A stretch of 64,000 bases of DNA, taken from assembly GCF_048403405.1 (NCBI RefSeq), contig NZ_CP183129.1; one strand, written 5' to 3'. Origin of the DNA: Escherichia coli (GTDB taxonomy: Bacteria > Pseudomonadota > Gammaproteobacteria > Enterobacterales > Enterobacteriaceae). The position numbers and the translations under genes were made by a program. Of the stretch, positions 17,428-51,375 are shown piece after piece (the stretch's first letter is position 1; every line of letters starts with the position of its first letter). The notes below the pieces were generated by a model. It was not told the DNA's origin. It saw only the letters and a program-made list of their open reading frames with translations, and ran no database searches.

Positions 17428-17542
17428 TAAGGCTCCTGTAAAATCGTTCGAAGCAGGGAAAATAACGCATGAGGCTACCTTGTATCCATTGCTTCTGGCA
17501 ACATTAAGTCTCAAATTGTACTGACCCCAAAAAGTTGGACAG

Positions 17543-18394
17543 TTAAACACGAGGCATATAGGTCTGATTCCGATATTCAATTGGAGTCAGACCTTTTAAT
17601 TTCAGGCTAATTCTTCTGCTGTTGTAGTATTCAATATATTCCGTAACAGCATCCTTCAGTTCGCTTATATTACTGAACTCATCAAGATAAAAACACTCCG
17701 ACTTTAAGGTTCCAAAGAAACACTCCACCACAGCATTATCCAGACAATTGCCTTTTCTGGACATGCTTTGTTTAATACCATGTTCTTTAAGGATATTTTG
17801 ATATCTTCTCATACGATACTGCCATCCCTGGTCAGAGTGCAGAACAGGATGCTCGTGAGGATTAAGCTTTTTGAATGCCTGATCGAGCATATTCTCAACC
17901 ATGTTCATCACTGGTCTTTCCGAAAGGCTGTAAGAAATAACTTCGTTGTTGAAGAGATCTATTACTGGAGACAAATACAGCTTGCGCCCATTGACTACAA
18001 ATTCAGTAACATCGGTAACCCACTTCTCGTTTGGCCGCGTAGCCTTGAAATCTCTTTGGAGAACATTAGGGGCGGTTTGCCCTACCTCTCCTCTGTAAGA
18101 GCGGTATCGCTTGACCTTAATCGCTGCTTTAAGTGAGAGGGTTCCCATCAGGCGCTGAACAGCTTTATGGTTAATCTGTTTCCCTTCTCGATGAAGAGAC
18201 AGCGTTACCCTACGGTATCCGTATCGGCCTCTATTCTCGTGATAAATCTCACCAATACGCTTTTTAACGTCCGCATACTTGTCAGGCTTGCTGAGAGCCT
18301 TTAGATGGTAATAAAACGTACTGCGCGGTATCTCCGCAGCCCTGAGAAGCTCATCAAGAGGATAAAACTGCCTTAGCTCGTTGAGTACTTTTAC
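17543..18394 (-). CDS. insK: IS150 transposase orfB (InsK), expressed by -1 frameshift from orfA
   Basis: DDE-type integrase core (ORF track shows 201 aa C-terminal part from internal Met); upstream extent approximate. Confidence 0.8.
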
Positions 18395-18912
18395 TTTTTC
18401 GTGGGATGAGCTAAGGCTTTCAGCTTTTTTAGATACATAAGCCGCGTTTCAAGAAATCGAACTTGCCTTTCAAGATCCTCAATGCGTCGGTCTTTTGACA
18501 GCTCCAATGCTGATGCCGCTTTTTCTGGATCAACTGATATTGCAATGTTTCTTTTGGTGCCAATCTTGAGCGCGCGTAAACCAGCTTCTCCGCGCTCTTC
18601 ATAGACCTTCAGCCACCTGGCTACAGAACCACTACCAGCAAGCATAAAGTGAGCAGCAGCCTGATTAAGGGACATGTGCTGCTCGATCACAGCTTTCACG
18701 ACCTTAATACGCAACTCTGGATCAGCACTAACGCCTTTAGGTTTGGGAATTAAACCTTTTTCTCCATGTTTTTCATAGAGGGCAACCCATGTCCTGACCT
18801 GGGTTCGGGGGACACCAAAACGTGCCGAGATGATCCTGTAACCATCATCAGTTGTGAAGTAGTGATTCACGACTTCAAGGCGCTTTTCAAAAGGGTATTT
18901 TGGCTTTGACAT
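18391..18912 (-). CDS. insJ: IS150 transposase orfA (InsJ), HTH protein
   Basis: 173 aa MSKPKYPFEKRLEVVNHYFTTDDGYRIISARFGVPRTQVRTWVALYEKHG... Confidence 0.88.
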   Translation of the reverse strand: MSKPKYPFEKRLEVVNHYFTTDDGYRIISARFGVPRTQVRTWVALYEKHGEKGLIPKPKGVSADPELRIKVVKAVIEQHMSLNQAAAHFMLAGSGSVARWLKVYEERGEAGLRALKIGTKRNIAISVDPEKAASALELSKDRRIEDLERQVRFLETRLMYLKKLKALAHPTKK

Positions 18913-18978
18913 ATTAGGGGCTATTCCATTTCATCGTCCAACAAAATGGGTGCAGTACAAATTTTCAAAGGGTGGAAG

Positions 18979-31296: not shown

Positions 31297-32883
31297 TTAA
31301 TGCTCGCGGGTCTGGTGGAACTGAACGTCCGGATAACGTTCCTGCGCCAGGCGCAGGTTGACCATGCTGGTAGCGATGTAAGCGAGGTTATCGCCGCCAT
31401 CAAGCGCCAGTTGGCTTTCGTTCTTACGCTTGAACTCTTCGAATTTCTTCGCGTCCGCACATTCTACCCAGCGGGCAGTGGCAACGTTGACTGACTCATA
31501 CACTGCTTCAACGTTGTATTCGCTCTTCAGACGCGCTACCACCACATCAAACTGCAGCACACCAACCGCACCAACGATCAGATCGTTGTTGGAGATCGGA
31601 CGGAACACCTGCACTGCGCCCTCTTCGGAAAGCTGTACCAGCCCTTTAAGCAGCTGTTTTTGCTTCAGCGGATCTTTCAGGCGGATACGACGGAACAGTT
31701 CCGGCGCGAAGTTCGGAATACCGGTGAACTTCATCATCTCACCCTGGGTAAAGGTGTCGCCGATCTGAATAGTGCCGTGGTTATGCAGGCCGAGGATATC
31801 GCCCGGATACGCTTCTTCAACGTGCGAACGGTCACCCGCCATAAAGGTCAGCGCGTCGGAGATCACCACATCTTTCGCAGTACGCACCTGGCGCAGCTTC
31901 ATGCCTTTTTCATATTTACCGGACACCACACGCATAAACGCCACGCGGTCGCGGTGTTTCGGGTCCATGTTGGCCTGAATTTTAAATACGAAGCCTGTAA
32001 ATTTGTCTTCGCTCGCCTCTACGGTACGGGTATCAGTCTGACGCGGCATCGGCGCAGGTGCCCACTCCACCAGACCATCCAGCATATGATCGACGCCGAA
32101 GTTACCCAGCGCAGTACCAAAGAATACCGGAGTGATTTCGCCCGCAAGGAACAATTCTTTGTCGAACTCGTTAGACGCGCCTTTCACCAGCTCCAGTTCA
32201 TCACGCAGCTGCTGCGCCAGATCTTCACCAACCGCAGCGTCGAGATCCGGGTTATTCAGCCCTTTAACAATACGGACTTCCTGAATGGTGTGGCCTTTAC
32301 CGCTCTGATAAAGATAGGTTTCATCTTTATAAAGGTGGTAAACGCCTTTAAACAGCTTGCCGCAGCCAATCGGCCAGGTGATCGGTGCGCAGCCGATTTT
32401 CAGCTCGTTCTCAACTTCATCGAGCAGTTCCATCGGGTCGCGGATATCACGGTCAAGTTTGTTCATAAAGGTGAGGATCGGCGTATCGCGCAGACGGGTA
32501 ACTTCCATCAGCTTGCGGGTACGATCTTCAACACCTTTTGCGGCGTCGATAACCATCAGGCAGCAGTCCACCGCCGTCAGGGTACGATAGGTATCTTCCG
32601 AGAAGTCTTCGTGCCCCGGGGTGTCGAGCAGGTTAACCAGGCAATCGTGATACGGAAACTGCATCACAGACGTAGTAATGGAGATCCCACGCTGCTTTTC
32701 CATCTCCATCCAGTCCGACTTAGCGTGCTGGTTGGAACCACGGCCTTTTACTGTACCGGCGGTCTGAATGGCCTGTCCGAACAGCAGCACCTTCTCGGTG
32801 ATGGTAGTCTTACCGGCGTCTGGGTGAGAAATAATTGCAAAGGTTCTTCTTTTCGCTACCTCTGCGGCCAAAAGGCTTGTCAT
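31297..32883 (-). CDS. prfC: peptide chain release factor 3 (GTPase)
   Basis: 528 aa, G1 motif [20 protein letters not shown]; start at [15 protein letters not shown]. Confidence 0.93.
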
Positions 32884-34573: not shown

Positions 34574-35164
34574 ATGTCTCGAATTTTTGCTTACTGTCGG
34601 ATATCAACTCTGGATCAGACCACCGAAAATCAACGCCGGGAAATCGAAAGTGCAGGCTTTAAAATCAAACCTCAGCAAATAATCGAAGAACACATTAGCG
34701 GCTCAGCAGCAACCAGTGAGCGTCCTGGTTTTAACCGGTTGCTTGCTCGCCTGAAATGTGGTGATCAATTGATTGTGACAAAACTGGATCGCCTTGGTTG
34801 TAATGCAATGGATATCAGGAAAACAGTGGAACAACTGACCGAAACAGGTATCAGAGTGCATTGCTTAGCATTGGGGGGCATTGACCTGACCAGTCCAACA
34901 GGAAAAATGATGATGCAAGTAATTTCAGCAGTCGCTGAATTTGAACGAGACCTTTTACTTGAACGCACTCATTCCGGGATAGTAAGAGCCCGGGGCGCAG
35001 GGAAACGTTTTGGTCGACCACCTGTGTTAAATGAAGAACAGAAACAGGTGGTATTCGAACGAATTAAGTCAGGTGTAAGTATAAGTGCCATTGCCCGGGA
35101 ATTCAAAACCTCGCGGCAAACCATTTTAAGAGCCAAAGCAAAACTTCAGACACCTGACATATAA
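34574..35164 (+). CDS. pin: serine recombinase, Pin-type DNA invertase (PinR/PinQ-like)
   Basis: 196 aa; catalytic Ser region [15 protein letters not shown] motif, C-terminal HTH. Confidence 0.88.
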
Positions 35165-35391
35165 AAAATAATCTCGGTGTGAGATGCTTTACGTCTTCCA
35201 AGCCCCCTTCCTTGCCGTAAATGGAAAGATACATCTAATTATAGAATTTATATGTTTTACCCTACGGCAGTGCTGGCCATTCAATATCCTGTGCAGTTGA
35301 CGTATCAACACGGTTCAGCAACACCCGATACTTTTTCCAGGCTTCCAGCAACGGGGTTTCTTCCTCCGTTGCATATACAGCTCACCTTTTT

Positions 35392-35688
35392 TCACCCACG
35401 ATTAACCAACAGCCAGACCAGCAGACACGCCACCACCGGCACAGCAAAATCCATCAGGCTTGCCACATCCCACACGCGCGGATCAAAACCGCCCCACCAC
35501 GGCATGTTAATCCTCTTGCCATGCCCAAACATTTCAATCCAGCGATATTCCGCCTGGGTGTGTTCACGCGCAATGAAGAACGTACAACCGGCTATCGCCC
35601 CGTAAGCCCAGTTCCCGGTAAAAAGACCAACCAGTAGCTGCGCAGCCACAGCACAAAGCGCATGAAGGAAAGGTGTTATATCCATTTT
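35392..35688 (-). CDS. small 3-TM inner-membrane protein of unknown function (prophage accessory)
   Basis: MKMDITPFLHALCAVAAQLLVGLFTG...; three hydrophobic helices; between tail-fibre module and pin. Confidence 0.55.
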   Translation of the reverse strand, partial: KMDITPFLHALCAVAAQLLVGLFTGNWAYGAIAGCTFFIAREHTQAEYRWIEMFGHGKRINMPWWGGFDPRVWDVASLMDFAVPVVACLLVWLLVNRG

Positions 35689-35727
35689 CATCCTACCCAA
35701 TAAAACGGGGCGCTCGGCCCCTTGATA

Positions 35728-36768
35728 TTATTTAGACGCAAGCGCCGCCTCAATTGCAGATAATCTTTGTCTTAATTCTGCGTTTTCTTCTTCCAGTGCT
35801 GTTATTCTGTCGTCTGACTCTCTGGCTACCTGAACAAGCAAGCCAGTAACACCAGAATAATCTACTGTGTAATAACGTTCACCTTCTTCACCTTCCGATC
35901 CGCTTGCGCCGTCCTGATATTTCATTGCGGAACCTACAACTTCTGGGATTGCTTCCAGAGCTTCCTGTGCAATGACACCAGCATAGGGCATACCGTTTTC
36001 TTTAAGCGTGTATGTATAGCCGTTCATTTTACGGATGCGGTCGGTTGCATTATCGATCACCTGAATGTTGTCTTTCAGATCCCGGTCGGAATGCTGGTTA
36101 AATGCGGTGGCATGACATGCACCATTAACGCTTAACATATAGGTGTTATCGGTATTTTTTTGCGCATAGAACATATAAGCGCCACCATCAACACCGACTT
36201 CATAAACAACAGGACGGCTGGAGTTGCCCCACAATTGAGCAGTAACACCAGCATAAGCGGTTCCCTGTGTGTTTAATGTCATGGTTGACCCATGATTGGC
36301 ATATTTGATCTGTAATGTGTCGGTGTAATCAAATTTAATAAGCGCGTTACTTCCACGCTTGCTGTATGACATAAGGCAGTTACCCATTTTGAGGTATCCG
36401 CTGTCACCGGGAAAAATCATCGTACCGCCATAAAGGTTGGTAAAGTCCCAGCAAATGTTTGTCCCGTTATCGTTCAGGTTAAGGCGCGCCATTGCGTTAC
36501 CTGGACTGTCTATCCATTTTTTGAGGTATAGTTCGCAATACGCATCCTCAACACCTGCCGTCCTGTGAGTTGAGCGGAGTTTTCTCCCAAATATAGCTCC
36601 GCTAGTTGGCAATACCTGCTGATACCATGAAGCAGACCAGTCACCAACGATTTCATCTTTGCTGTCTACATATAATTTTGTTGCGTAGCTTCCTTGATCG
36701 TTTTTTAATTTGCTAACGTCGGATTTTAGCGTTTTGATGTCATCAGGAATTACTGTCGATGTAGCCAT
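35728..36768 (-). CDS. tail-fibre/tail-spike tip protein with C-terminal intramolecular chaperone (peptidase S74-like) domain
   Basis: 346 aa; C-terminus DLKDNIQVIDNATDRIRKMNGYTYTLKENGMPYAGVIAQEALEAIPEVV... typical of auto-cleaving chaperone domains of endosialidase and T5 pb1 type fibres. Confidence 0.7.
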   Translation of the reverse strand: MATSTVIPDDIKTLKSDVSKLKNDQGSYATKLYVDSKDEIVGDWSASWYQQVLPTSGAIFGRKLRSTHRTAGVEDAYCELYLKKWIDSPGNAMARLNLNDNGTNICWDFTNLYGGTMIFPGDSGYLKMGNCLMSYSKRGSNALIKFDYTDTLQIKYANHGSTMTLNTQGTAYAGVTAQLWGNSSRPVVYEVGVDGGAYMFYAQKNTDNTYMLSVNGACHATAFNQHSDRDLKDNIQVIDNATDRIRKMNGYTYTLKENGMPYAGVIAQEALEAIPEVVGSAMKYQDGASGSEGEEGERYYTVDYSGVTGLLVQVARESDDRITALEEENAELRQRLSAIEAALASK

Positions 36769-36777
36769 TTTTCTTCC

Positions 36778-37059
36778 TCACATCCAGCCACGAAGTTGAT
36801 GCTCAACAGCAACCACGTATTCATCGAATAATGACGATATTTGCGAATCATTAATGATGCGCACGTTTACAAAATATCCGTCTTCCTTAACACATACCGG
36901 TTCGCCATCTTCAGTCAGTTCTCCGGTTTCTTTGTACACGTTACCTATCACGTCAATAAGAATATCATCCTGCATCAACTCGTCATCATAATAGCCAATG
37001 CTCTCCATAAAGGCCGAAAAGTCGGCCCTGTCGGGAAATTTGAGTGTTAAATCTTTCAT
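36778..37059 (-). CDS. hypothetical 93-aa acidic protein between fibre genes (possible fibre assembly/adaptor)
   Basis: ORF with 1-nt overlap (ATGA) with stf stop; no recognised motif. Confidence 0.45.
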   Translation of the reverse strand: MKDLTLKFPDRADFSAFMESIGYYDDELMQDDILIDVIGNVYKETGELTEDGEPVCVKEDGYFVNVRIINDSQISSLFDEYVVAVEHQLRGWM

Positions 37060-39434
37060 TAGATTGACTCCCCCACCTGAGCATCAGTCAATGCCTTGTG
37101 CCATATTCTGAAATTCCTTACATGACCAAATAAATGACGTAACCCGGCTGTAGTCTGGCCTCCAATACGGATAATTGCGGTGTTCTGAATACAGGACCAT
37201 GTGGTTTTTGTTTCGCTGGATATACGCCCGTTACTTACTGCGCATGTAGACTGATCAGACTTTACACGCATCCCCATAACCATTTTTTCAAGTGATGCAT
37301 TTTCGTTTATCCGTCTGTTAGACCCACCAATATCGCAATAAGGAAATCCGTCGTAATCTGCTGAAGAACCGAAGCCAAGAATAATAGCCGCTCCGGTTTG
37401 ATGACCGCCGGTATCAAAAACACGCGGTGCTGCATTTGGCGTTTTATACCAGTTCTTATGTACCTCACAAAGAACCGTAAAAGGAAGATTATAAAGATTA
37501 TTCTTAATGGGAACTGTGACTATATCGCTTGCGCGGGTCGCCGCCGTCGTTCCTGATATAATAAAAGATGATACACAAGGCCCATTTTCTACTTGTGGGG
37601 TGGCCAGATAAATATAGTCACCAGATACGGTTGCCCCGCCCTGCTTAGGAGAATACTGTATCTGAGAACCTATTTTTAACTCCCCATCAATTGCCTGAAT
37701 TGTTGCCTCTGCAAAAATCCATCCGATAACTTCGTCCTTTCTGACTCTCGCTGTAATCCTTGAGGCAGCGCCGCCTGTCATATTAATTTCAAGCGTTTGT
37801 GTATCAATATACACATCACCAAGAAAAGTTGTTGCGCTACCGTCATATTTATCAAATCGGATACGCAACCTTACCTGCAGTTCTGTTTTAAAACGACATG
37901 AGGTTGTCACGTATTTATTATCGCCTGAGACATCAACTGACTTTGTTGCAGCAATTGATGCCATATTAATGGCTGAGGTTTGCCCAATCAGAGAATCGTT
38001 ACAGACAAACTTTCCATAGGTAAAACCAAAACTATCCGTCCCGGTTTCGGGAACATCCATATTTGACGATCGCCCCCAACTGGCAGGGCTTTCCGAATTG
38101 AGCATGTAGTTCGTTCTTTGCCCCTCAATAAGCAGGCCATCACGTTCAAACCGTGGCTCGTCAATGGCAGCCTCTGTCAGCACACCAGATTTATTAATAT
38201 AGGTTGCTTTCGATGCGCGTTTAAACTTAACAACCTTGTCGCCAGGCATCGTTATTTCATCATCACCAATAACAATCTTTTTATATGACGGCGAAAAGCC
38301 CGTAATCATATCCAGCGAATCGTTAAATGGTATCCACACATCAGGCAGCGGCTGTAAGACATATTTATACGGCTCCGCAGCCTGGCTTGCGTACTCTCTG
38401 GCTGCATCTTCGCTTGCTTTAGCTGCCGTCTGGCTTGCTGCCGATGCTTTCGCTGAGTTCGCAGCCGCTGTTTCGCTCACCTTTGCGTTGGTTTCACTGG
38501 TTTTTGCTGCTTTTTGACTGTTAGCTGATGCAGTGGCAGAAGCAGCAGCCGCGCTTGCAGAACCAGCTGCAGCACTCTCGCTTTCGGCTGCTGCATCCTG
38601 ACTGCTTTTCGCCGCAGTTTCGCTGGCTTTGGCATTCGTTTCGCTGGTCTTCGCTGCCGTCTGGCTGGACTTTGCGTTAGTTTCACTCGTCTTCGCTGCT
38701 TTCTGACTGTTAGCCGCAGCAGTTGCTGATCCAGCAGCTGAAGTCGCAGAACCGGCTGCCGCGCTCTCGCTTTCGGCTGCTGCATCCTGACTGCTTTTCG
38801 CCGCAGTTTCACTGGCTTTGGCATTCGTTTCGCTGGTTTTCGCTGCCGTCTGGCTGGACTTTGCGTTGGTTTCGCTCGTCTTTGCGGCTGTCTCGCTATT
38901 TTTCGCGTTGGTTTCTGATTTTTTGGCTGCTGTCGCGGAGTTTTCTGATGCAGTCTGTGAGGTCGCTGCCGCCTGTGCACTATTAGCTGCATTCGTTTCT
39001 GAGGTTTTCGCCGCGTTCTTCGATGATGCCGCTGCAGTTTCGGATTTCTTTGCCGCCGCTGCGCTCTGAGAGGCGGCTTCGGCGTTGCGTGCCGCTTCTT
39101 CCACCATTTCCTCAAAACGACGCAATGCCTCCGGCATGACATCATCTTCCGTCATGGCACCGAGAAAATCATTCAGCGTACCTGGTCTGGAACCTTCATA
39201 GACGGTAATGGTTCCGGCATGTGAAGGCGGAAAACCTTCAACAAGCAGGATAACGCTGTACTGGCCATACTCAACATCCATGCTGTAACGCCCGGCTTCA
39301 TCCGGATTTTCAGAGGCCACCGTGTTCACCAGTACCGTGGTGCTGTTACGCTTTGCCTTCAGTTGAATAGTGCAGTTCTGTATTGGTTTTCCCGCACCAT
39401 CTTTCAGCACACCTGAGATTTTTACTGCTGCCAT
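37059..39434 (-). CDS. stf: side tail fibre protein Stf (lambda-type N-terminus, divergent C-terminal receptor-binding part)
   Basis: N-terminus MAAVKISGVLKDGAGKPIQNCTIQLKAKRNSTTV... matches lambda Stf; Ala/Ser/Thr/Lys-rich repeats; C-terminal part resembles a lectin/LamG-like domain. Confidence 0.85.
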   Translation of the reverse strand: MAAVKISGVLKDGAGKPIQNCTIQLKAKRNSTTVLVNTVASENPDEAGRYSMDVEYGQYSVILLVEGFPPSHAGTITVYEGSRPGTLNDFLGAMTEDDVMPEALRRFEEMVEEAARNAEAASQSAAAAKKSETAAASSKNAAKTSETNAANSAQAAATSQTASENSATAAKKSETNAKNSETAAKTSETNAKSSQTAAKTSETNAKASETAAKSSQDAAAESESAAAGSATSAAGSATAAANSQKAAKTSETNAKSSQTAAKTSETNAKASETAAKSSQDAAAESESAAAGSASAAAASATASANSQKAAKTSETNAKVSETAAANSAKASAASQTAAKASEDAAREYASQAAEPYKYVLQPLPDVWIPFNDSLDMITGFSPSYKKIVIGDDEITMPGDKVVKFKRASKATYINKSGVLTEAAIDEPRFERDGLLIEGQRTNYMLNSESPASWGRSSNMDVPETGTDSFGFTYGKFVCNDSLIGQTSAINMASIAATKSVDVSGDNKYVTTSCRFKTELQVRLRIRFDKYDGSATTFLGDVYIDTQTLEINMTGGAASRITARVRKDEVIGWIFAEATIQAIDGELKIGSQIQYSPKQGGATVSGDYIYLATPQVENGPCVSSFIISGTTAATRASDIVTVPIKNNLYNLPFTVLCEVHKNWYKTPNAAPRVFDTGGHQTGAAIILGFGSSADYDGFPYCDIGGSNRRINENASLEKMVMGMRVKSDQSTCAVSNGRISSETKTTWSCIQNTAIIRIGGQTTAGLRHLFGHVRNFRIWHKALTDAQVGESI
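38560..38890. repeat. tandem duplication (about 186-bp unit) inside stf coding region
   Basis: Near-identical DNA blocks ...CTCGCTTTCGGCTGCTGCATCCTGACTGCTTTTCGCCGCAGTTTC... at about 38562-38700 and 38748-38890; protein repeat SETNAKSSQTAAKTSETNAKASETAAKSSQDAAAESESAAAGSA occurs twice. Confidence 0.8.
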
Positions 39435-39498
39435 ATCCACTCCACAAAAAAGCCCGCCTGAACCGGCGGGCTGTCATAACACTGTGTTACCTGGCTAA

Positions 39499-40098
39499 TC
39501 AGAATTTATAACCGACACCCACGATGAAACCGTCAGTGCGCCAGTCACCACTGCCGGAACCTTCATAAGCAAGGTCAATGGCCACGGATTCGGTCGGGTT
39601 AAACTGCACGCCAGCCCCCCACGCCAGAGACGTGTTGCTGTGGCGACCGTCATCACTTCCGGTCAGCACATCGTGCGTTTTCCCCTTGTTGTCAGTTACG
39701 CGGAGATAATCCCCGGAGAAGGTCGACACACGGCTGTAAGCCATACCCGCCATCGCATAAGCACTGAACCATTCATTCACGCGTACAGATGGCCCCGCCA
39801 TCATGCTGAACCAGCGGTTACGCACGGAATCTTCATGCCAGCGGGTATCGCTGTAATGCGTTTTTTGCTCATCTTTGGCATTGGCATAACTGAATGACGT
39901 CACCAGCCCCAGCGTGTCCGTAAATTCATAACGGTATTTCACGTTAATGCCCTTCAGGTCATCACTGCCTGGCATATCAGTATGGGTCTGAAGATACCCG
40001 GCGCTTAGTGTGGACTGATGCTCTGCTGCGCTCGCTGGCGTACCAGCGGCAACCAGCCAGACTACTGCGGACAGAATAACAGCACATAATTTACGCAT
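39499..40098 (-). CDS. lom: Lom outer-membrane protein (Ail/Lom family)
   Basis: 199 aa, signal peptide, beta-barrel ending ...GFIVGVGYKF; position between J and stf as in lambda. Confidence 0.88.
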   Translation of the reverse strand: MRKLCAVILSAVVWLVAAGTPASAAEHQSTLSAGYLQTHTDMPGSDDLKGINVKYRYEFTDTLGLVTSFSYANAKDEQKTHYSDTRWHEDSVRNRWFSMMAGPSVRVNEWFSAYAMAGMAYSRVSTFSGDYLRVTDNKGKTHDVLTGSDDGRHSNTSLAWGAGVQFNPTESVAIDLAYEGSGSGDWRTDGFIVGVGYKF

Positions 40099-40165
40099 AA
40101 TTACCTCTCGCTTTTCTGCAATAAAAAAGGCGTCATTTCTGACGCCCGTATTGGGGTTATAAAAT

Positions 40166-43100
40166 TCAGCTGATACTGATGCCTGCGGTGGCTTTCTTCA
40201 TCACCACAACCAGCAAATCGCTGATACTTGCTGTGGGATACCAGTCATTTACCAGCCATGCTGACACCGAAAACTCCAGCGTCATGTGACCGTGACCGGC
40301 AGGCATATCAATAACGCCACTGTAAATCAGCGTATTATCCAGCGCGGTACGGTTATAAATTTCAGCACCGTTTTTCCGCACTATCAGACGGCATGAGGAG
40401 TAAATATCAGTATGCTCTCTCTCATGTTTAGCGCCGCTGAATGCCACCGCCGGAATAACAATCTGCCGGTCAAACGGCTGATCGTCATAAATCCTGACGG
40501 TAATGGTCCCTGATGGCCACCGTTCCGGTGCACGGGAGTCCCGGGGGAAAGCTTTGCCCACTGTTTTAACGAGATCGCCTTCAATCTGGTTCGCGGACAG
40601 TTTTCCCAGAACCCGGCAGTTCTCGTTAATCGTGACGTTGTTGAGCGTCCCGGAGTTCGCATTCACGTTACCGCTGATATCGGCATTTTTCGCCGTCAGC
40701 CGCCCGTCCGGTGTCAGGGAAAATGCCGGAGGATTACCGCCGCTGGTAATGGTGGGAGCCGTCAGATATTTCAGGAACACTTCATTCATAAATATCTGAT
40801 CGCCCTGACCAACAAACATCGGCTTTGTGTTGCCATTCGCAGGATTAACCATCGCAATCCTGTCCGCCGCCAGCAGCACCTGACTCTGCATACCGTCAGG
40901 AGTATTCTCAATACCGGCACCAATACCCGCGATATAAAGGCGTCCGTCCTGCATCTGCTGCAGCTTCACAGCCCACATGCTGTTCAGGTTATTATTTGTA
41001 TCAACCTGAACCTTCTGTATCTGCTGAATTACCGCACTCTGGTCTTCCAGTTTATTATTGACGGTCTGCGTGATTTCATTGCTGACATCCGTAATGGACG
41101 TCCTGATTTCAGCCAGGTCAGGCGCAAGCTGACCGTTATCAATCTGCGTCCACAGCTCCTGAGCCAGATGGCTTTTCCCTATCTCGCCTTTGAAAAAATC
41201 CAGATAGCCGGATGCATCATCACTCGGCTGGCCAACAGCCTCCACAAATGCCGATTTGCCAACGGTGTTCACACTGCGGATGTAAAAATAATAATCATGG
41301 CCCGGTTTGATATTGATACTGGTGGCTATCCAGTACAGCGCCGTGCCAAGATAGCGGGCTGTGGTTTCAACCTGCCTGATATCGGTAATCCGCGTTTCCG
41401 AGAACCAGAACTCAAACTGTACCGTCGGATCATAAACCGCAAGATGCGGCGTGGCAGTTATCTGAAAATAGCCCGGCGTCAGCTCAATCCGCGACGGCGC
41501 TGCCGGTGCGGCAATCCGGAACGATACCGATGCCGGATCGCCCTGCTGTCCCCACGCATTTACCGCCCGGACCGTCAGCGTGTAACGCCCCAGCGCCAGT
41601 TGCCTGAAGCGGTATGTGGTTTCCGTCGTCCTGGCCGTGCTGACCAGCCGCTCACTGCCGTCGTCCGCTGCCACGGTCAGGCGAAGCAGGAAGCTCACGC
41701 CCTTCACCACCTTCGGCGTGTCCCAGCGGGCCAGTACCTGATACTCCCCGCTGTCTGCGGTGACTTCGGCAGTCAGGTGCTGCACCGCTGGCGGCGTGAC
41801 ACCATTCACCGTGCCGCTCTGGTCACCGTCAAAGTGCGCCCCGTTATCCACGATGGCTTCTTTCTCCGGTACATGCTGCACGGCGGTGATGGCATACGTG
41901 CCATCGTCGTTCTCACGGATACTCACACAGCGGAACAGGCGCTGGCGCAGCGTCGGCAGCTTCAGCCCCCATACGCTGTATTCAGCAACACTGTCAGGAA
42001 CACGGCTCACTTTTACCTTCACGCCGTCGGTGACGGACTGAACCTCCACGCTGACCGGATTGCCACTTCCGTCAACCAGGCTTATCAGCGTGGTACCGGA
42101 GGATGGCAGCGTGATTTCACGGTCGAGCGTCAGCGTCCGGGTCTGGCTGTTCACCGCCAGTACACGACCACCGGTGCTGATACCGGCATAGTCATCATCA
42201 CAGATTTCAATAACATCGCCCGGTACATGGCGAAGCCCTTCTGCGCCGACGCTGAAATCCACGGTCTGCGTTTCCAGCAGTTCCGTTTTAATCAGCCACA
42301 GCCCGGCGCGGTGTGCCTGCCCCCGGCTGGTACAGCCAAAGGCATCCATCTTCGTGACGTTACGACCGTAACGGGCAATGGCCTGCGTGTCCTCCACAAG
42401 CTCTGTCGCCGTCTCCCAGCCGTTGTTCGGGTCAATCCAGTTCACCTCAACGGCATTATGGCGGTCCTTCAGGGCGCTGAAGCTGTAGCGGAACGGCGCG
42501 CCATCATCCGGCATCACCACATTACTGCGGTTATAGGTCCACACCTTATCCGACGGTCGGTCCTGCACGAATGTCAGCGTCTGCCCGTTCCATACCGGCA
42601 TACAGCGCATCGCCGAGCAGAAATCACTGAGCACATCCCACGCCTTGCGCTGTGTGGCCAGGTACGCATTACAGGTGATGCGCGGCTCCGTGCCGCCAAA
42701 ACCATCCGGCACCGACTGGTCGCAATACTGGCTGATGACATACAGCGCCCATTTATCCACATCTGCCGCACCAAGACGTTTCCCCATGCCGTAGCGCGGA
42801 TGGGTCAGCATATCCCACAGACACCAGGCCATGTTGTTGCTGTATGCTGGCTTAAACGTTCCGTCCCAGATACCGCTGTATTGCCGCGTCTGCGGGTTAT
42901 AGTTCGACGGCACCTGCAGAATGCGCCCGCGAAGATGATAATTACGGCTCACCTGCTGGCTGCCGAACTGCTCCGAATCCACCTGCACGCCGACCAGTGC
43001 CGTGTTCGGGTAGCACTGTTTCACATCGATGATTTCGGTGTATGACGACCAGAGCGTTTTGTTCTGCAGCTGGTCTGTGGTGCTGTCCGGCGTCATTCTG

Positions 43101-43645
43101 CGCATCCGGATATTAAACGGGCGCGGCGGCAGGTTATCCACCACCACCGAGGCCAGATACTGTGAGGTGGTTTTGCCCTTAATGGTGATGTCTTTTTCCG
43201 TCACCCAGCCACCATTACGCTGTATCTGAACCAGCAGGCGAACTTCCGACAGATTCCGGTCCCCCTTTGAGGTGGTTTCCACCAGTGCCTGCACACCGAA
43301 GGTAAAGCGCAGACGGTCGATGTTTGCAGACGTGATGGTCCGGGTAATCGGCGTGTCGTACTTCACTTCCGTACCCAGCACCGTCTCGGAGCCGGAGGAT
43401 TCAAATCCCTCCGGCGGTGTCTGCTCCTGCTCACCTGCCCGGAACACCACCGTGACACCGGAGATATTGGTATTCCCCTCACTGTCCAGCACTGGCGTAC
43501 TGTTCAGCAGCACACTTTTTAATCCGTCCACCGGACCTTCAACCGGCCCTTCACTGATGGCGTCTATCACGCTCAGCATCTGGGATGATTTCAGGTTGTC
43601 CTTCGCTTCGCGCGGGGTATGCCCCTTACTGCTGCCTTTACCCAT
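40166..43645 (-). CDS. J: tail tip/host-specificity protein J
   Basis: 1159 aa, N-terminus [20 protein letters not shown]... as lambda J; C-terminal ~150 aa appears divergent from my recollection of lambda. Confidence 0.92.
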
Positions 43646-43705
43646 TCGTCATGATCCATAAACGATAAAACCGCCCGGAGGCGGTTTCACATAAAACATT
43701 TTGCA

Positions 43706-44377
43706 TCAGCGACCAATCACCACAACCTGACCACCATCCCCTTCGTCTGCCGTGCTGATCTCCTGAGAAATCACGCGTGACCCCACGCGCATTTCACCGT
43801 ACAGAACGGGCAGAACATTCCCCTGGGCAACCATGTTATCCAGTGAGGAGAAATAGGTGTTCTGCTTACCGTTATCCGTTGTCTGTGTGCGGGGAGTTCT
43901 GGCTTTCGGTGCCAGCATCTGAGCCACACCACCGAGCACCATACTGGCACCGAGAGAAAACAGAATGCCGGTCATACCACCGGCACCAATGGCTGCCCCC
44001 CATGCTGCAAGGGTGGCTCCGGCGGTAAAGAATGATCCGGCAATGGCGGCTGCTCCCAGGACAATCTGGAATACACCACCTGACTTGGCCCCGGCGACTC
44101 TGGGAACAATATGAATCACAGCGCCATCAGGCAGAGTCTCATGTAACTGCGCCGTTAATCCGGACGTGCTGACGTCCCGCCCGGCAATCCGTACCTGATA
44201 CCAGCCGTCGCTCAGTTTCTGACGAAACGCCGGGAGCTGTGTGGCCAGTGCGCGGATGGCTTCAGCCCCCGTTTTCACACGAAGGTCGATGCGGCGGCCA
44301 AATCGTTGCAAATCCCCGTAAAGGCAGATGCGTGCCATTCCCGGTGACGCCAGAGGGAGTGTGTGCGTCGCTGCCAT
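43706..44377 (-). CDS. I: tail assembly protein I
   Basis: 223 aa MAATHTLPLASPGMARICLYGDLQRFGRRIDL... Confidence 0.9.
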   Translation of the reverse strand: MAATHTLPLASPGMARICLYGDLQRFGRRIDLRVKTGAEAIRALATQLPAFRQKLSDGWYQVRIAGRDVSTSGLTAQLHETLPDGAVIHIVPRVAGAKSGGVFQIVLGAAAIAGSFFTAGATLAAWGAAIGAGGMTGILFSLGASMVLGGVAQMLAPKARTPRTQTTDNGKQNTYFSSLDNMVAQGNVLPVLYGEMRVGSRVISQEISTADEGDGGQVVVIGR

Positions 44378-45018
44378 TTGTCGGTATACCTCTCTCGTTT
44401 GCTCAGTTGTTCAGGAATATGGTGCAGCAGCTCGCCGTCACCACAGTAAATGGCGGCATGATTCGGCACCGATGAACCAAAGCAGCACAGCAGCACGTCG
44501 CCAGGCTGCGCCTCTGTCAGTGCGACACGGTAAAAACCAGTCGCCTCCATATTGTCAAGATAGAGATTCTGACCGTTACGCCACCAGTCATCCCCGCGAT
44601 GAAAATCCGGCATCTCAATCCCCGCCAGATGATAAGCATCCCGGAACAGCGTGTAACAGTCCGTCACCCCGTGCTCAAAGCGACGCCCGGTGAGATGCGG
44701 CACACAGCGGAACTTGTGAATCGCCCCCCGGCAGACCAGCCACCACGGCAAATCACTCTGCACCTGCAGCCGCCGGTCAGCCTCACTCAGCCAGGGCAGA
44801 CCACCGGGATGACTGTGGACCAGTGCCACAATCTCACCCTGCATCTCTGCCTGCAGCCAGTCCTCCGGAGCCATCCGGAAATAATCCTCCGGCTCACCGG
44901 AGATATTCACGCAGGGAAAATATCTTTCCCCCTCCGGCGTGCTTACCACGAAGCCGCACGACTCCGCTGGCGCACATCGCCGGGCGTGCGCCAGAATCGC
45001 TGATTCTGTCTCTGTCAT
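44275..45018 (-). CDS. K: tail assembly protein K (NlpC/P60-JAB-like); start approximate
   Basis: MTETESAILAHARRCAPAESCGFVV...HSHPGG motif; overlaps I. Confidence 0.85.
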   Translation of the reverse strand: MTETESAILAHARRCAPAESCGFVVSTPEGERYFPCVNISGEPEDYFRMAPEDWLQAEMQGEIVALVHSHPGGLPWLSEADRRLQVQSDLPWWLVCRGAIHKFRCVPHLTGRRFEHGVTDCYTLFRDAYHLAGIEMPDFHRGDDWWRNGQNLYLDNMEATGFYRVALTEAQPGDVLLCCFGSSVPNHAAIYCGDGELLHHIPEQLSKRERYTDKWQRRTHSLWRHREWHASAFTGICNDLAAASTFV

Positions 45019-45022
45019 GGGA

Positions 45023-45721
45023 TTACTGCGAAAGTTTGTTAATGGAAAGGAAGCCGCCAAAGTTGCCGACGTTATTGCGGAACTTACAGCCACTCAGGCA
45101 TTTGCTGCATTTATCCTTCGTGATATCGAACGTCGGCTGGTCATATTCATCCGCGACCGCCGGACCGCTATAACCGCACTCATCACCGCGATAGGTCCAG
45201 GTGCAGGTGTTGGCCAGCATGATGCGCCCCGGAAAAACAGCACCATCCGTTTCCGTCGGCGTGGACAACACAAAGGAGGCACTGACCGCGCTCAGTTCGC
45301 TGCACTGCTCGACGCGCCAGCGGCTGATCACCTCCTGCTCCGGATCGGCATCGCTGTTTCCGTTGACGAAATTCACCGCATCCAGAAAACGGGCGTAAAC
45401 CTTACGCCTGACCACCGTTCCGCCGACCAGACTCTGCAGATCTTCCACCATCCCGGTGACCATACCGTACAGGTTAGAAACCGTCAGCGTGGGGCGCGTA
45501 CTGGCGCCTTTGCCATTCAGTTCAAAACCGCTCCCCTGAATGGGATACGGCTGATACTGTCGCCCCTGCCAGGTGACCGGCTCACCTTTTTCGTTCTGCT
45601 CATTACAGAAAAAATAACGCTCTCCACCGACCTCTGTCAGATCGATTTCCCAGAGCACCACGCTGGCCGACTGCTCCGCACGGGTGCATTCATTCAGTGT
45701 TTCCTGTTGGATATCCTGCAT
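45023..45721 (-). CDS. L: minor tail protein L
   Basis: 232 aa, lambda L-like, Cys-rich C-terminus. Confidence 0.9.
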   Translation of the reverse strand: MQDIQQETLNECTRAEQSASVVLWEIDLTEVGGERYFFCNEQNEKGEPVTWQGRQYQPYPIQGSGFELNGKGASTRPTLTVSNLYGMVTGMVEDLQSLVGGTVVRRKVYARFLDAVNFVNGNSDADPEQEVISRWRVEQCSELSAVSASFVLSTPTETDGAVFPGRIMLANTCTWTYRGDECGYSGPAVADEYDQPTFDITKDKCSKCLSGCKFRNNVGNFGGFLSINKLSQ

Positions 45722-46050
45722 CAGTTCACCACCTGTTCAAACTCTGCGCTGAACTCAACACGCAACATACTGACCCGCGACGACCATTTTGCGCAGGTCA
45801 CCTTTATCTGCCGGTAGCCATAAGGCGGCGTCCACAGAAAGGCCTTCCAGCCCCCGTGCTCAGCCAGAAACGACTCCAGCGCCGCGGCCTCCCAACGGGG
45901 AACAGAAAGCGTCACGCTGTACGTTTTCAGGTCAGTGTTCAGCCCGGCAGGCGCTCGCTGGGAATAGCCATCACCAAAGCGCACCTTTCTTACGGAAGGG
46001 GCCGAAGCCACATCCATACCGGGTTTCACTTTCCAGCGGAAGGTTTTCAT
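45721..46050 (-). CDS. M: minor tail protein M
   Basis: 109 aa MKTFRWKVKPGMDVASAPSVRKVRFGDGYSQRAPAGLN... Confidence 0.9.
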   Translation of the reverse strand: MKTFRWKVKPGMDVASAPSVRKVRFGDGYSQRAPAGLNTDLKTYSVTLSVPRWEAAALESFLAEHGGWKAFLWTPPYGYRQIKVTCAKWSSRVSMLRVEFSAEFEQVVN

Positions 46051-48608
46051 CGTCCACCTCCGGAGAACAGACCACCATCGCGCATCTGCCCGGTCACAAC
46101 ATCCATTGCCGCCTTACGGGCTACGTCATAAACAGCCTTCAGCGCCTGTGGCCCTATCTGACCGTTCGTGCCGTCGTTGTTAATCACCACATGGTTATTC
46201 TGCTCAAACGTCCCGGACGCCTGCGACCGGCTGTCCGCCATGCTGCCCGGTGTACCGACATAACCACCGGTGGCATAGCCGCGCATCAGCCGGTAGAGAT
46301 TCCCCACGCCAATCCGGCTGGTTGCCTCCTTCGTGAAGACAAATTCACCACGGTGAACAATCCCCGCAGGCTCATATTTGCCGCCGGTTCCCGTAAATCC
46401 CCCGGTCGCAAAATGGAATTTCGCCGCAGCTGCCTGAATGGCTGTACCGCCTGACGCTGATGCGTCACCACCGACAGCACCGCCAATGACACTGCCCACA
46501 CTCCCGACGATCCCCACCATTGCCTGCTTAAGCAGAATTTCTGTCATCATGGACAGCACGGAACGGGTGAAGCTGCGCCAGTTCTGCTCACTGCCGGTCA
46601 GCATCGCCGCCATATTCTGCGCAATACCATCAAAGGTCTGCGTGGCTGCACTTTTAACCTGCGACATACTGTCCGTGGCACTCTCTTTCCACTCGCTCCA
46701 GCCGGACCTGAGGCCTGCCATCCAGTTCCCGCGAAGCAGGTCTTCAGCCGCCCAGGTCTTTTTCTGCTCTGACATGACGTTATTCAGCGCCAGAGGATTA
46801 TCGCCATACTGTTCCTTCAGGCGCTGTTCTGTGGCTTCCCGTTCTGCCTGCCGGTCAGTCAGCCCCCGGCTTTTCGCATCAATGGCGGCCCGTTTTGCCC
46901 GTTGCTGCTGTGCGAATTTATCCGCCTGCTGCGCCAGCGCGTTCAGGCGCTCCTGATACGTAACCTTGTCGCCAAGTGCAGCAAGCTGGCGTTTGTACTC
47001 CAGCGTCTCATCTTTATGCGCCAGCAGGGATTTCTCCTGTGCAGACAGCTGGCGACGTTGCGCCGCCTCCTCCAGTACCGCGAACTGACTCTCCGCCTTC
47101 CACAAATCCCGGCGCTGCTGGCTGATTTTCTCATTTGCTCCGGCATGCTTCTCCAGCGTCCGGAGTTCTGCCTGAAGCGTCAGCAGGGCAGCATGAGCAC
47201 TGTCTTCCTGACGATCGCCCGCAGACACCTTCACGCCGGACTGTTTCGGCTTTTTCAGCGTCGCTTCATAATCCTTTTTCGCCGCCGCCATCAGCGTGTT
47301 GTAATCCGCCTGCAGGATTTTCCCGTCTTTCAGTGCCTTGTTCAGTTCTTCCTGACGGGCGGTATATTTCTCCAGCGGCGTCTGCAGCCGTTCGTAAGCC
47401 TTCTGCGCCTCTTCGGTATATTTCAGCCGTGACGCTTCGGTATCGCTCTGCTGCTGCGCATTTTTGTCCTGTTGAGTCTGCTGCTCAGCCTTCTTTCGGG
47501 CGGCTTCAAGCGCAAGACGGGCCTTTTCACGATCATCCCAGTAACGCGCCCGCGCTTCATCGTTAACAAAATAATCATCCTTGCGCAGATTCCAGATGTC
47601 GTCTGCTTTCTTAAACGCAGCCTCTGCCTTAATCAGCATCTCCTGCGCGGTATCAGGACGACCAATATCCAGCACCGCATCCCACATGGATTTGAATGCC
47701 CGCGCAGTCCTGTCTGCCCAGGTCTCCAGCGTGCCCATGTTCTCTTTCAGGCGGCGGGTCTGGTCATCAAACCCTTTCGTTGCGGCCTCGTTCGCCGCCT
47801 GCAATGCCCCGGCTTCATCGCCGGAACGCTGCAACTGAGCAACATACGCAATCTGCTCCGCCGTCACGTTATGGAACTGGCGTGCCATCGCCGTCAGCCC
47901 CGACGTCGGGTCTGTGGTCAGCTTCCCGAAGGCTTCAGCGACCTTGTCCACCTCCACGCCGGATGCAGAGGAGAAACGCGCCACACTCTGGCTGATGGAC
48001 GCAATCTGAGCCTCACCGCTTACCCCCGCCTTAACCAGTGCGCTGAGTGACTCGCTGGTCTGGTTAAACGTCAGCCCTGCCGCCTGCCCGGCTCTGGACA
48101 GGACCAGCATACGATCTGCCGTCAGTCCCGCCTGATTGCCGGAAAGGACCAGCGTTTTGTTGAAATCGGACAGGGTTGAGTTGCCCTGATACCAGGCATA
48201 CGCCAGTGCACCGGTCGCCACCGCCAGCGAGGTGGCCCCCACCATCGGCAGGGTGATCGCACCGGCAAGCCCCCTGAACATGGGGATCATCCCGCCGAAG
48301 GAGTCCTTCACCTGCCCCCCCTGTTGCAGCAGGATGAGCCACGGATTCTGCCCCCCTGCAAGCTGCGTGGCCACGTCGGTGAACTGTGCAGGCAGCATAC
48401 GCATGGCGGCTTTATACTGCCCGACGGAAATCCCCGCTTTCTGTGCAGCCAGCGCCTGTCGGCTCAGCGACTGTTCAACGACTGCCGCTGTTTTTTTCGC
48501 ATCACTTTCCGTACCGGAAAAATGACGCCTGACTCTGGCCATCTGCTCGTCAAATCTGGCCGCATCCAGACTCAAATCAACGACCAGATCGCCTACCGGT
48601 TCAGCCAT
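46047..48608 (-). CDS. H: tail tape measure protein H
   Basis: 853 aa, coiled-coil rich, lambda H-like. Confidence 0.92.
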   Translation of the reverse strand: MAEPVGDLVVDLSLDAARFDEQMARVRRHFSGTESDAKKTAAVVEQSLSRQALAAQKAGISVGQYKAAMRMLPAQFTDVATQLAGGQNPWLILLQQGGQVKDSFGGMIPMFRGLAGAITLPMVGATSLAVATGALAYAWYQGNSTLSDFNKTLVLSGNQAGLTADRMLVLSRAGQAAGLTFNQTSESLSALVKAGVSGEAQIASISQSVARFSSASGVEVDKVAEAFGKLTTDPTSGLTAMARQFHNVTAEQIAYVAQLQRSGDEAGALQAANEAATKGFDDQTRRLKENMGTLETWADRTARAFKSMWDAVLDIGRPDTAQEMLIKAEAAFKKADDIWNLRKDDYFVNDEARARYWDDREKARLALEAARKKAEQQTQQDKNAQQQSDTEASRLKYTEEAQKAYERLQTPLEKYTARQEELNKALKDGKILQADYNTLMAAAKKDYEATLKKPKQSGVKVSAGDRQEDSAHAALLTLQAELRTLEKHAGANEKISQQRRDLWKAESQFAVLEEAAQRRQLSAQEKSLLAHKDETLEYKRQLAALGDKVTYQERLNALAQQADKFAQQQRAKRAAIDAKSRGLTDRQAEREATEQRLKEQYGDNPLALNNVMSEQKKTWAAEDLLRGNWMAGLRSGWSEWKESATDSMSQVKSAATQTFDGIAQNMAAMLTGSEQNWRSFTRSVLSMMTEILLKQAMVGIVGSVGSVIGGAVGGDASASGGTAIQAAAAKFHFATGGFTGTGGKYEPAGIVHRGEFVFTKEATSRIGVGNLYRLMRGYATGGYVGTPGSMADSRSQASGTFEQNNHVVINNDGTNGQIGPQALKAVYDVARKAAMDVVTGQMRDGGLFSGGGR

Positions 48609-49454: not shown

Positions 49455-50195
49455 TTAACTGGCGGTGACGGTGATTTCTGCAACCGCAGCAAACTCACCA
49501 TTACCGGATACGACCGGAATGTTGACCTTACCTGCAGCAACGCCATTCACGGTGATGGTCATACCACTGACCGACACGGTGGCTTTTGTTTTATCCGCTG
49601 ACACCGCACGGAAGCTCTTGTCGGTTGCGCCTTCCGGCTGGAATGCCACGGTCAGCGTGGTGCTCTTCCCTTTCACTACGGAAGCGCTGGCTGGCGTCAC
49701 GGTCATACCGGTTGCCGCTGTTACCGTGCTGCGTTCTTCTGCCATCGACGGACGTCCCACATTGGTGACTTTCACCGTGCGGGTGATCACTTCCTTCGCC
49801 GTCACCGCCTTACCGATACTGCTGACCCAGCCACGGAACACATCGACCGTGCCGTTCGGGAAGCGGATTTTATAGGCACGGGTATCGCCTTCATTAAACC
49901 ACGCCAGCAGCGCCTGCTGCCCCTGCTCTCCGGGCATCCACGCCAGCGTGAAGCTGGTATCTCCGGCAGATTTCTGCCCCTGCCCGGTCGCGGTCCAGTC
50001 TGCATCTTCATCATCGAGATAGCTGTCGTCATAGGACTCAGCGGTCAGTTCGCCGGGCGTCAGGTCTTTAACTTTAGCCAGACGCGACCAGTCAACGTCT
50101 GAAAGCGGGTTCGCATAAGGGTCACCGTTCCCCTTATAAACCCACAGGGTGGTCCCGGCCCCTTTCACCGGCATTACTGGATTTGGTACAGGCAT
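49455..50195 (-). CDS. V: major tail protein V (with C-terminal Ig-like domain)
   Basis: 246 aa [36 protein letters not shown]..., near-identical to lambda V as recalled. Confidence 0.93.
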
Positions 50196-50267
50196 ATCGT
50201 CCTCACATTTCAGGTGATGCTGCCAACTTACTGATTTAGTGTATGATGGTGTTTTTGAGGTGCTCCA

Positions 50268-50543
50268 GTGGCTTCTGTTTCTATCAGCTGTCCCTCCTGT
50301 TCAGCTACTGACGGGGTGGTGCGTAACGGCAAAAGCACCGCCGGACATCAGCGCTATCTCTGCTCTCACTGCCGTAAAACATGGCAACTGCAGTTCACTT
50401 ACACCGCTTCTCAACCCGGTACGCACCAGAAAATCATTGATATGGCCATGAATGGCGTTGGATGCCGGGCAACCGCCCGCATTATGGGCGTTGGCCTCAA
50501 CACGATTTTCCGCCATTTAAAAAACTCAGGCCGCAGTCGGTAA
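50268..50543 (+). CDS. insA: IS1 InsA
   Basis: 91 aa [43 protein letters not shown]... Confidence 0.9.
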
Positions 50544-50965
50544 CCTCGCGCATACAGCCGGGCAGTGACGTCATCGTCTGCGCGGAAATGGACGAACAGT
50601 GGGGATACGTCGGGGCTAAATCGCGCCAGCGCTGGCTGTTTTACGCGTATGACAGGCTCCGGAAGACGGTTGTTGCGCACGTATTCGGTGAACGCACTCT
50701 GGCCACACTGGAGCGTCTTCTAAGCCTGCTGTCGGCCTTTGAGGTCGTGGTATGGATGACGGATGGCTGGCCGCTGTATGAATCCCGCCTGAAGGGAAAG
50801 CTGCACGTAATCAGCAAGCGTTACACTCAGCGAATTGAGCGGCATAACCTGAATCTGAGACAACATCTGGCAAGGCTGGGACGGAAGTCACTGTCGTTCT
50901 CAAAATCGGTGGAGCTGCATGACAAGGTCATCGGGCATTATCTGAACATAAAACACTATCAGTAA
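50462..50965 (+). CDS. insB: IS1 InsB (transposase, made as InsAB by frameshift)
   Basis: 167 aa ORF overlapping insA in -1 frame. Confidence 0.9.
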
Positions 50966-51375
50966 GTTGGAGTCATTACCCACATTTCATAGGTAATGAC
51001 ATAAGTCAGATCGGCTGAACTCCACAGGCCCGCATCATCGTCGCGCCGGTAGTCATAGCCGCTGGCCACCATACTGGTGATCAAATCTGACAGTGCCGGG
51101 ATATCACTCATCACCGGATAAATCCGGGACTCCATCCACTCATCCAGCTCTGAATCCGGCACCTGAGCAGGCAGGAAAACTTCGATATGCAGCTCCGCCT
51201 GCCAGGTATCGCTGTCCAGCTCTTCGCCCGTGTATTCAGCGCCGGTGAGATAAACGGCAACTGCCGGAAAATCCGCCTCATCAAAAACAGCGGGGCGACC
51301 ATCAAAAAACGTCGCCCCGGTGTCATGCTTCTCCAGTGCATCCAGTACGGCTGCACGGAGTTCAGTATGTTTCAT
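50959..51375 (-). CDS. U: tail terminator protein U; C-terminus altered by IS1 (7 extra codons read into IS1)
   Basis: 138 aa [31 protein letters not shown]...; ends ...ITYEM then WVMTPTY encoded by the IS1 end. Confidence 0.88.

Follow-up and report, generated by a model that had tools for sequence, protein, structure and literature searches.

IS-driven decay of lambdoid prophages is known, for example, from IS629 in the prophages of E. coli O157 and from the cryptic prophages of K-12. IS1 is classically known for adjacent deletions, and it reportedly favors target sites similar to its own ends. IS1 insertions in the gal and lac operons are polar in both orientations through Rho-dependent termination, and the lambda N and Q antitermination systems suppress polarity. 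The IS1 element, the lambda tail genes U and V, IS polarity and antitermination, and IS-anchored prophage erosion are all known, and it is the present instance that is new.

The window analyzed here, a stretch of 64,000 nucleotides from Escherichia coli (contig NZ_CP183129.1), includes part of a lambda-like prophage in which an IS1 lies between U and V. The features of the prophage and the insertion site are given below.

32822-64000, extending past the window, minus strand: lambda-like prophage that hosts the IS1.
32822-32835: attR core ATTATTTCTCACCC, within the 5' end of prfC.
49455-50195, minus strand: major tail gene V, 246 aa.
50204-50212: target-site duplication CACATTTCA, V-side copy, which on the minus strand restores TGA and part of the V Shine-Dalgarno.
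50213-50980, plus strand (transposase genes): intact IS1, 768 bp, antisense to the phage late operon.
50213-50235: IS1 left inverted repeat GGTGATGCTGCCAACTTACTGAT, 23 nt, facing V.
50268-50543, plus strand: insA, 91 aa, with one residue different from K-12 InsA.
50462-50965, plus strand: insB' reading frame, 167 aa.
50958-50980: IS1 right inverted repeat ATCAGTAAGTTGGAGTCATTACC, facing U, source of seven extra U codons and a new stop.
50981-50989: target-site duplication CACATTTCA, U-side copy, containing the final codons of U plus the TG left from its original stop.
50959-51375, minus strand: tail-terminator gene U, extended from 131 to 138 aa.

A sequence-only reading of this DNA had placed the IS1 at the stop codon of U, between U and V, and had described a simple transposition with a 9-bp target duplication that extends U by seven codons (WVMTPTY), all of which was borne out. 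The direct repeat CACATTTCA is exact on both sides of the element (50204-50212 and 50981-50989), and its 9 bp is the length typical of the IS1 family, where 8-10 bp occur occasionally. The TGA stop of U is split after TG, and IS1 adds a G to give TGG. Read directly on the minus strand, the U side is ACC TAT GAA ATG TGG GTA ATG ACT CCA ACT TAC TGA, and U ends in M-W-V-M-T-P-T-Y-stop. On the V side, the minus strand reads ...CATCACC, followed by TGAAATGTGAGGACGAT and ATG, where the duplicated copy restores the V start region, and V retains its own Shine-Dalgarno GAGGA (50200-50204) and ATG. The antisense orientation of IS1 just upstream of V also held, the transposase genes being on the plus strand, but the reported distance of 18 bp did not, as 17 nt were measured from the IS1 end to the V ATG. 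When IS1 and one repeat copy were removed in silico, the remaining DNA matched the IS1-free allele of strain YDC107 at 1024 of 1024 positions. Because the empty site is reconstructed exactly, the insertion is real and not a chance pattern, and at the level of sequence the event is confirmed as a simple IS1 transposition into the U stop codon. A paper on the tail of "Escherichia phage YDC107" was set aside as irrelevant, since it treats a Ravinvirus-type tail protein and not this prophage.

A short sequence shared by U and the end of the element was found next to the insertion point.

50992-51000, plus strand, inside U: 9-mer GGTAATGAC, with its second copy (50972-50980) at the tip of the IS1 right end.

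The copy in U lies 11 nt from the insertion point and pairs with the IS1 end as a perfect 9-bp inverted repeat around the duplicated target. Only these two copies of GGTAATGAC occur in 64 kb, against 0.33 expected, and its position may reflect the preference of IS1 for end-like targets.

The element itself was compared with known IS1 copies. Its inverted repeats, 23 nt each, are imperfect (83% complementary) and begin with the family-type GGTGATG and GGTAATG. The A6C frameshift motif TTAAAAAACTC begins at 50517, and a modelled -1 shift yielded an open InsAB' frame of 232 aa. The element thereby shares with the IS1A/IS1R type its 768-bp length, 23-bp imperfect ends, insA and insB' with the A6C site, and the 9-bp duplication. 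It aligned with IS1A of K-12 at 740 of 768 positions (96.4%) with no gaps, and the 28 substitutions, mostly in insB', mark it as an isoform and not the K-12 copy. An identical copy in the E. coli genome TUM1226 is annotated in RefSeq as "IS1 family transposase, programmed frameshift", and the Pfam families DDE_Tnp_IS1, Zn_ribbon_InsA, and HTH_Tnp_IS1 (PF03400, PF03811, and PF12759) matched the same genes in the sister loci L006 and L007. Judged on these features, all that can be read from sequence to define an IS1 is present. The copy is functional-looking, being both intact and the anchor of one-ended deletions in two sister genomes.

The host prophage measured ~48.2 kb including IS1 on the TUM1226 record. 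As this is about the size of lambda, packaging length is not the problem, and an over-length genome was ruled out as a lesion. The late genes are ordered Nu1-A-W-B-C-D-E-FI-FII-Z-U-V-G-T-H-M-L-K-I-J, followed by lom-stf, as in lambda (from the annotation of an identical region). The DNA is 96-98% identical to lambda, with 98.4% in the U-V region, and residues 1-131 of gpU are identical to lambda gpU at 130 of 131 positions. Among isolated phages, PhiR63_1 was closest, with 97.2% identity across the entire head half. Compared with lambda, U here has seven extra C-terminal residues, 777 bp lie between U and V, the early, Q, and lysis regions resemble prophages of the Qin/CPS-53 type, and integration is in prfC. 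These early, Q, and lysis regions are outside the window. In TUM1226 and the IS1-free relatives, a Q-lambda-family gene precedes the lysis cassette, likewise outside the window, and the encoded protein of 250 aa contains two copies of PF03589 ("Antitermination protein Q"), with Q-lambda (7UBM) as its best PDB match (E = 1.7e-37). It is a duplicated relative of Q-lambda, not Q-lambda itself.

Two further observations were made on the prophage. Integration took place within the first ~20 codons of prfC, where the prophage provides a different, replacement PrfC N-terminus, and a 69-bp remnant of the native prfC start lies at the opposite end of the prophage. In addition, the window has stf (37059-39440, minus strand) as one open reading frame of 793 aa, and the annotations of CNR65D6 and, as far as the gene is visible there, of MS 69-1 also show it undivided, while in TUM1226 and 097H6 RefSeq splits it into a pseudogene and a "head spike fiber" protein. 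The split was taken to be an annotation effect, although TUM1226 and 097H6 carry substitutions there relative to the window. A second lesion in stf was rejected, given that the frame is open in the window and whole in CNR65D6, whose prophage sequence is identical.

The distribution of the insertion among genomes was narrow. The full U-IS1-V arrangement was limited to TUM1226 among 5,426 complete E. coli genomes, and the exact 138-aa U fusion was recovered from three further Japanese assemblies by an exact-protein look-up. The same IS1 junction was present in at least six independent assemblies, whose origins include Japan, the USA, and Spain. These IS1-bearing genomes share one chromosomal background, with a 23.5-kb flank that is 100% identical. 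No IS1-bearing prophage was found in other clonal backgrounds among the 5,426 complete genomes or by the exact-protein look-up, and the insertion did not occur in any of 50,697 phage records. That the IS1 allele is confined to one clone could mean that the phage is defective, but would be no less expected if the insertion were very recent.

Genomes with an empty site or an IS1-free prophage provided further insights into the order of events. Three genomes of the same clone (4621, TUM14771, and GN02461) have an empty prfC site. The strain CNR65D6 (France) carries an IS1-free prophage at prfC with no differences from the in-window prophage apart from IS1 and the duplication, while the chromosome beside it differs from the IS1 clone by 27 SNPs in 3 kb. 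The two prophages are identical over the stretches compared, which were the ~30 kb of prophage in the window and, by way of TUM1226, 20.5 kb from U to the replication genes. The 13 kb of the head half were free of differences from an IS1-free prophage, in agreement with the earlier statement that the head genes are intact. The strain 097H6 (Algeria) carries a related but non-identical IS1-free prophage at prfC, and its yjjU allele is that of CNR65D6 and differs from that of the IS1 clone. The IS1-free prophage is accordingly present in chromosomes unrelated to the clone. The simplest history suggested by these sequences is that the IS1-free phage spread recently by infection, lysogenised this clone, and gained IS1, which would later have seeded deletions.

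The window is not the TUM1226 record but comes from a sister genome in the same clone. The two had no differences in the 1.8 kb around IS1, and ~265 substitutions without indels were concentrated at about 35000-47999 (stf, lom, and J, with a few in K and H), the rest of the prophage being identical. In the J/lom/stf/H patch, TUM1226 stands apart from the window, MS 69-1, and CNR65D6, and its divergence in the tail-fibre and J genes looks like a recombination patch acquired from another lambdoid prophage after the IS1 insertion.

Differences were also observed outside the prophage. An IS150-like element of 1,443 bp (17517-18959), with ends TGTACTG...CAGTACA and a 3-bp duplication AAT, is located in the ytjB-serB spacer of the window. 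It is absent from TUM1226 and, judged by the same 94% coverage in two pieces, from five other complete genomes of the clone. As the IS150-like element is private to the window strain, the source strain has at least two private IS insertions. A single tRNA-Leu gene is present in TUM1226 (L005 10085-10171; record 4150084-4150170; outside the window), where MS 69-1, isolate 68, 4621, TUM14771, and GN02461 have a tandem of three; the single gene reflects either recombinational loss or a collapsed assembly.

The sequence-only reading had also held that IS1 polarity probably blocks late transcription from V to J. The antisense RNA does have the expected properties, but the block itself is doubtful. 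Specifically, each of the three frames of the antisense IS1 RNA contains 9-14 stops, which leaves ~745 nt untranslated, and the RNA includes one weak hairpin with a T-run at 50353-50339 as well as the following region.

50543-50815, minus strand: C-rich, G-poor stretch of antisense IS1 RNA, a candidate Rho-loading region by composition only.

Across this stretch of 270 nt (50815-50543), C accounted for 31-36% in each of six 78-nt windows, and the C/G ratio was 1.04-1.69 (1.35-1.69 in four of the six), versus about 0.6-0.9 in U and V, from which we infer a rut-like composition. An RNA that is untranslatable and C-rich implies that IS1 would be polar in an ordinary operon. The arrangement is like the polar insertions in gal and lac in that IS1 lies between cistrons of a polycistronic operon, yields untranslatable RNA, and includes C-rich stretches. 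Unlike gal and lac, this operon would naturally be read by an antiterminated polymerase, which should suppress most of the polarity (PMC12360218). Suppression of polarity is documented for Q-lambda, and its complexes resist pausing and termination, while its protection against Rho "requires further validation" (PMC12360218). As the late operon would be read by a polymerase modified by a Q-lambda-family protein, and as V initiates from a ribosome-binding site of its own, transcription of V-J is unlikely to be blocked completely. Some loss of transcription is possible even with Q.

Other ways in which IS1 could influence V were considered and rejected. Occlusion of the V ribosome-binding site by the new upstream sequence was dismissed because the insertion allele folds more weakly, with a minimum free energy of the V initiation region of -23.3 kcal/mol versus -38.6 kcal/mol in the wild type for fragments of equal length. 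An outward or hybrid promoter from the IS1 end driving V was rejected as well, since a scan of the minus strand revealed no promoter-like site. A TTGGCA in the IS1 left end had by eye no usable -10 at 16-18 nt.

The second consequence of the insertion concerns gpU, to which seven residues (WVMTPTY), mostly hydrophobic, were added. Homologues 67-100% identical to gpU, compared across Escherichia, Shigella, Salmonella, Klebsiella, Pluralibacter, Enterobacter, and others, were 131-133 aa long and ended in ...ITYEM or YDM, and longer forms were rare. The conservation of this C-terminus could instead reflect the overlapping V ribosome-binding site. Lambda U- mutants make over-long tails that are unable to join heads, and a gpU defect would be expected, from these phenotypes, to give over-long or unjoined tails, not tail-less heads. 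All 131 residues of gpU are ordered in the lambda virion (PMC10721106). In the homologous tail terminator of T5, the lumen of the tube is lined by the beta-sheet, the C-terminus contributes to the interface between subunits, and polymerisation became aberrant with a His tag at the C-terminus but not with a tag at the N-terminus (bioRxiv 10.1101/2024.10.16.618446). The gpU chains in the PDB bear no C-terminal tags, only three extra N-terminal residues, and so give no information on the tolerance of an extension. Together, these observations suggest that the lengthened gpU is more likely to be the lesion than a transcription block, and the chances that it causes a serious gpU defect seem evenly balanced.

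One extended homologue was seen among the U-family sequences. The cluster representative P0020, of 141 aa, ends in ...ITYEM-LGRYGYTKSP, and its tail looks like a read-through of the U stop into the U-V spacer. Sequence databases therefore hold further gpU variants with a lengthened C-terminus.

Two sister strains carried the IS1 in an altered context. In both MS 69-1 (USA) and isolate 68 (Spain), the IS1 (768 of 768 positions) and the V-side junction were identical to those of the window, while the U-side ends were joined to new sequences.

L002 12514-13282: deletion locus of MS 69-1, with the U-side end of IS1 joined inside int; endpoint at 4154217 of the TUM1226 record.
L003 12514-13281: deletion locus of isolate 68, with the U-side end of IS1 joined just past the end of a cro-like gene; endpoint at 4160633 of the TUM1226 record.

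The missing DNA amounts to 29,039 bp in MS 69-1 and 22,623 bp in isolate 68, and in both cases begins exactly at the U-side end of IS1. The genes from U to Nu1 are lost in both strains, together with the lysis genes, Q, and the replication genes, while V-J-stf remain. The new joints are without duplication, which is the pattern of an adjacent deletion, and it fits either transposition or IS1-IS1 recombination. By their breakpoints, the two deletions are shown to be independent, one-ended, and anchored at the same IS1, so that prophage decay in this clone began with the insertion. A tail defect by itself would leave an induced host unprotected, as Q and the lysis genes precede the insertion. 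Unlike the tail defect, both deletions remove exactly the host-killing genes. Literature searches on IS1 adjacent deletions in prophages and on these strains turned up nothing relevant to the finding.

Three accounts of what the insertion does to the phage were weighed. Under strong IS1 polarity, late transcription would stop within IS1, V-G-T-H-M-L-K-I-J would be silent, and filled heads without tails would accumulate. The untranslatable antisense RNA with its 9-14 stops per frame, its 270-nt C-rich stretch, and its weak hairpin with a T-run all point this way, as does the precedent of gal and lac, where IS1 is polar in both orientations, and the occurrence of the IS1 allele in one clone only is also in line with it. 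This outcome is nevertheless improbable, given that the prophage encodes a Q-lambda-family antiterminator, that V retains its Shine-Dalgarno and ATG through the target duplication, and that Q-lambda suppresses polarity and its complexes resist pausing and termination (PMC12360218). A transcription block is scarcely more credible as the main cause of a reduced particle yield. At the other extreme, the insertion could be silent, with Q reading through IS1, gpU tolerating seven more residues, and the prophage remaining a viable phage with IS1 as cargo. The size of ~48.2 kb with IS1 is inside the packaging capacity of the lambda type, the V ribosome-binding site is retained, Q is present, and the other in-window phage genes are identical to those of an IS1-free prophage that evidently moved between lineages recently. 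However, no IS1-bearing copy was found outside the one clone in the 5,426 complete genomes or the exact-protein look-up, nor in the 50,697 phage records, the length of the U-family C-terminus is conserved, and a C-terminal tag disturbs the homologous T5 terminator, which together make a silent insertion rather unlikely. It is similarly improbable that the IS1-bearing prophage is still fully infectious through Q read-through and a tolerated gpU tail. If it were, the phage would provide a natural lambda-like means of packaging an active IS1 and moving it between strains. The preferred reading is that an extended gpU, rather than a halted polymerase, is the more likely lesion.

The origin of the deletions and the integrity of the assembly were weighed in the same manner. 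The deletions in MS 69-1 and isolate 68 could have arisen by homologous recombination with a second, later IS1 in int or next to cro. Either route would produce the observed state, in which the one remaining IS1 has its original flank on one side, a new flank on the other, and no matching duplication, and an IS1-containing query matched 7-11 places per genome, so that several partner copies were probably available. Recombination would require two extra insertions in the same orientation in one prophage and two recombination events, however, and no two-IS1 intermediate was found in the prophage among the genomes searched, while IS1 is itself known for adjacent deletions. This route is therefore considered unlikely, if somewhat less so than the silent insertion. 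Nothing was found that points to a misplacement of IS1 by the assembler, which is exceedingly improbable in view of the perfect 9-bp duplication, the exact reconstruction of the empty site, and the recurrence of the same junction in genomes assembled independently in Japan, the USA, and Spain.

The overall explanation favored here begins with a single, simple transposition of a functional-looking IS1 into the TGA stop of U in a lambda-like prophage of ~48 kb in prfC of one E. coli clone. The insertion created the 9-bp duplication and a gpU with seven additional residues, and it separated the two tail genes by an antisense IS1 of 768 bp that cannot be translated in the late mRNA, while V kept its ribosome-binding site. 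After induction, a polymerase antiterminated by a Q of the Q-lambda type should pass the Rho-dependent signals that make IS1 polar elsewhere, and transcription of V-J would probably be reduced little or moderately, not abolished. The gpU extended by WVMTPTY may assemble or terminate tails poorly. The IS1 later acted as the fixed anchor of the deletions of 22.6 and 29.0 kb in the sister strains. Taken as a whole, this account of a simple insertion, Q read-through, a gpU lesion, and anchored deletions is likely to be correct. As with every functional statement made in this study, we infer the effect on phage production, where a clear reduction in the yield of infectious particles appears somewhat probable.

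The insertion by itself is ordinary, and the locus is a tidy example of IS-seeded prophage decay. It presents a natural series that leads from an empty prfC to an IS1-free prophage, to the IS1 in the U stop, and to two independent IS1-anchored deletions that removed the lethal part. It also provides natural tests of whether Q antitermination can override IS1 polarity in a native late operon and whether the tail terminator tolerates a C-terminal extension, and both questions are open to lambda genetics because gpU is identical to lambda gpU at 130 of 131 residues. As in the decay of the O157 and K-12 prophages, an IS entered the morphogenesis operon and an IS-anchored loss of lysis, replication, and head genes followed. 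Unlike in those prophages, the whole series is kept here at base-pair resolution in near-identical genomes.
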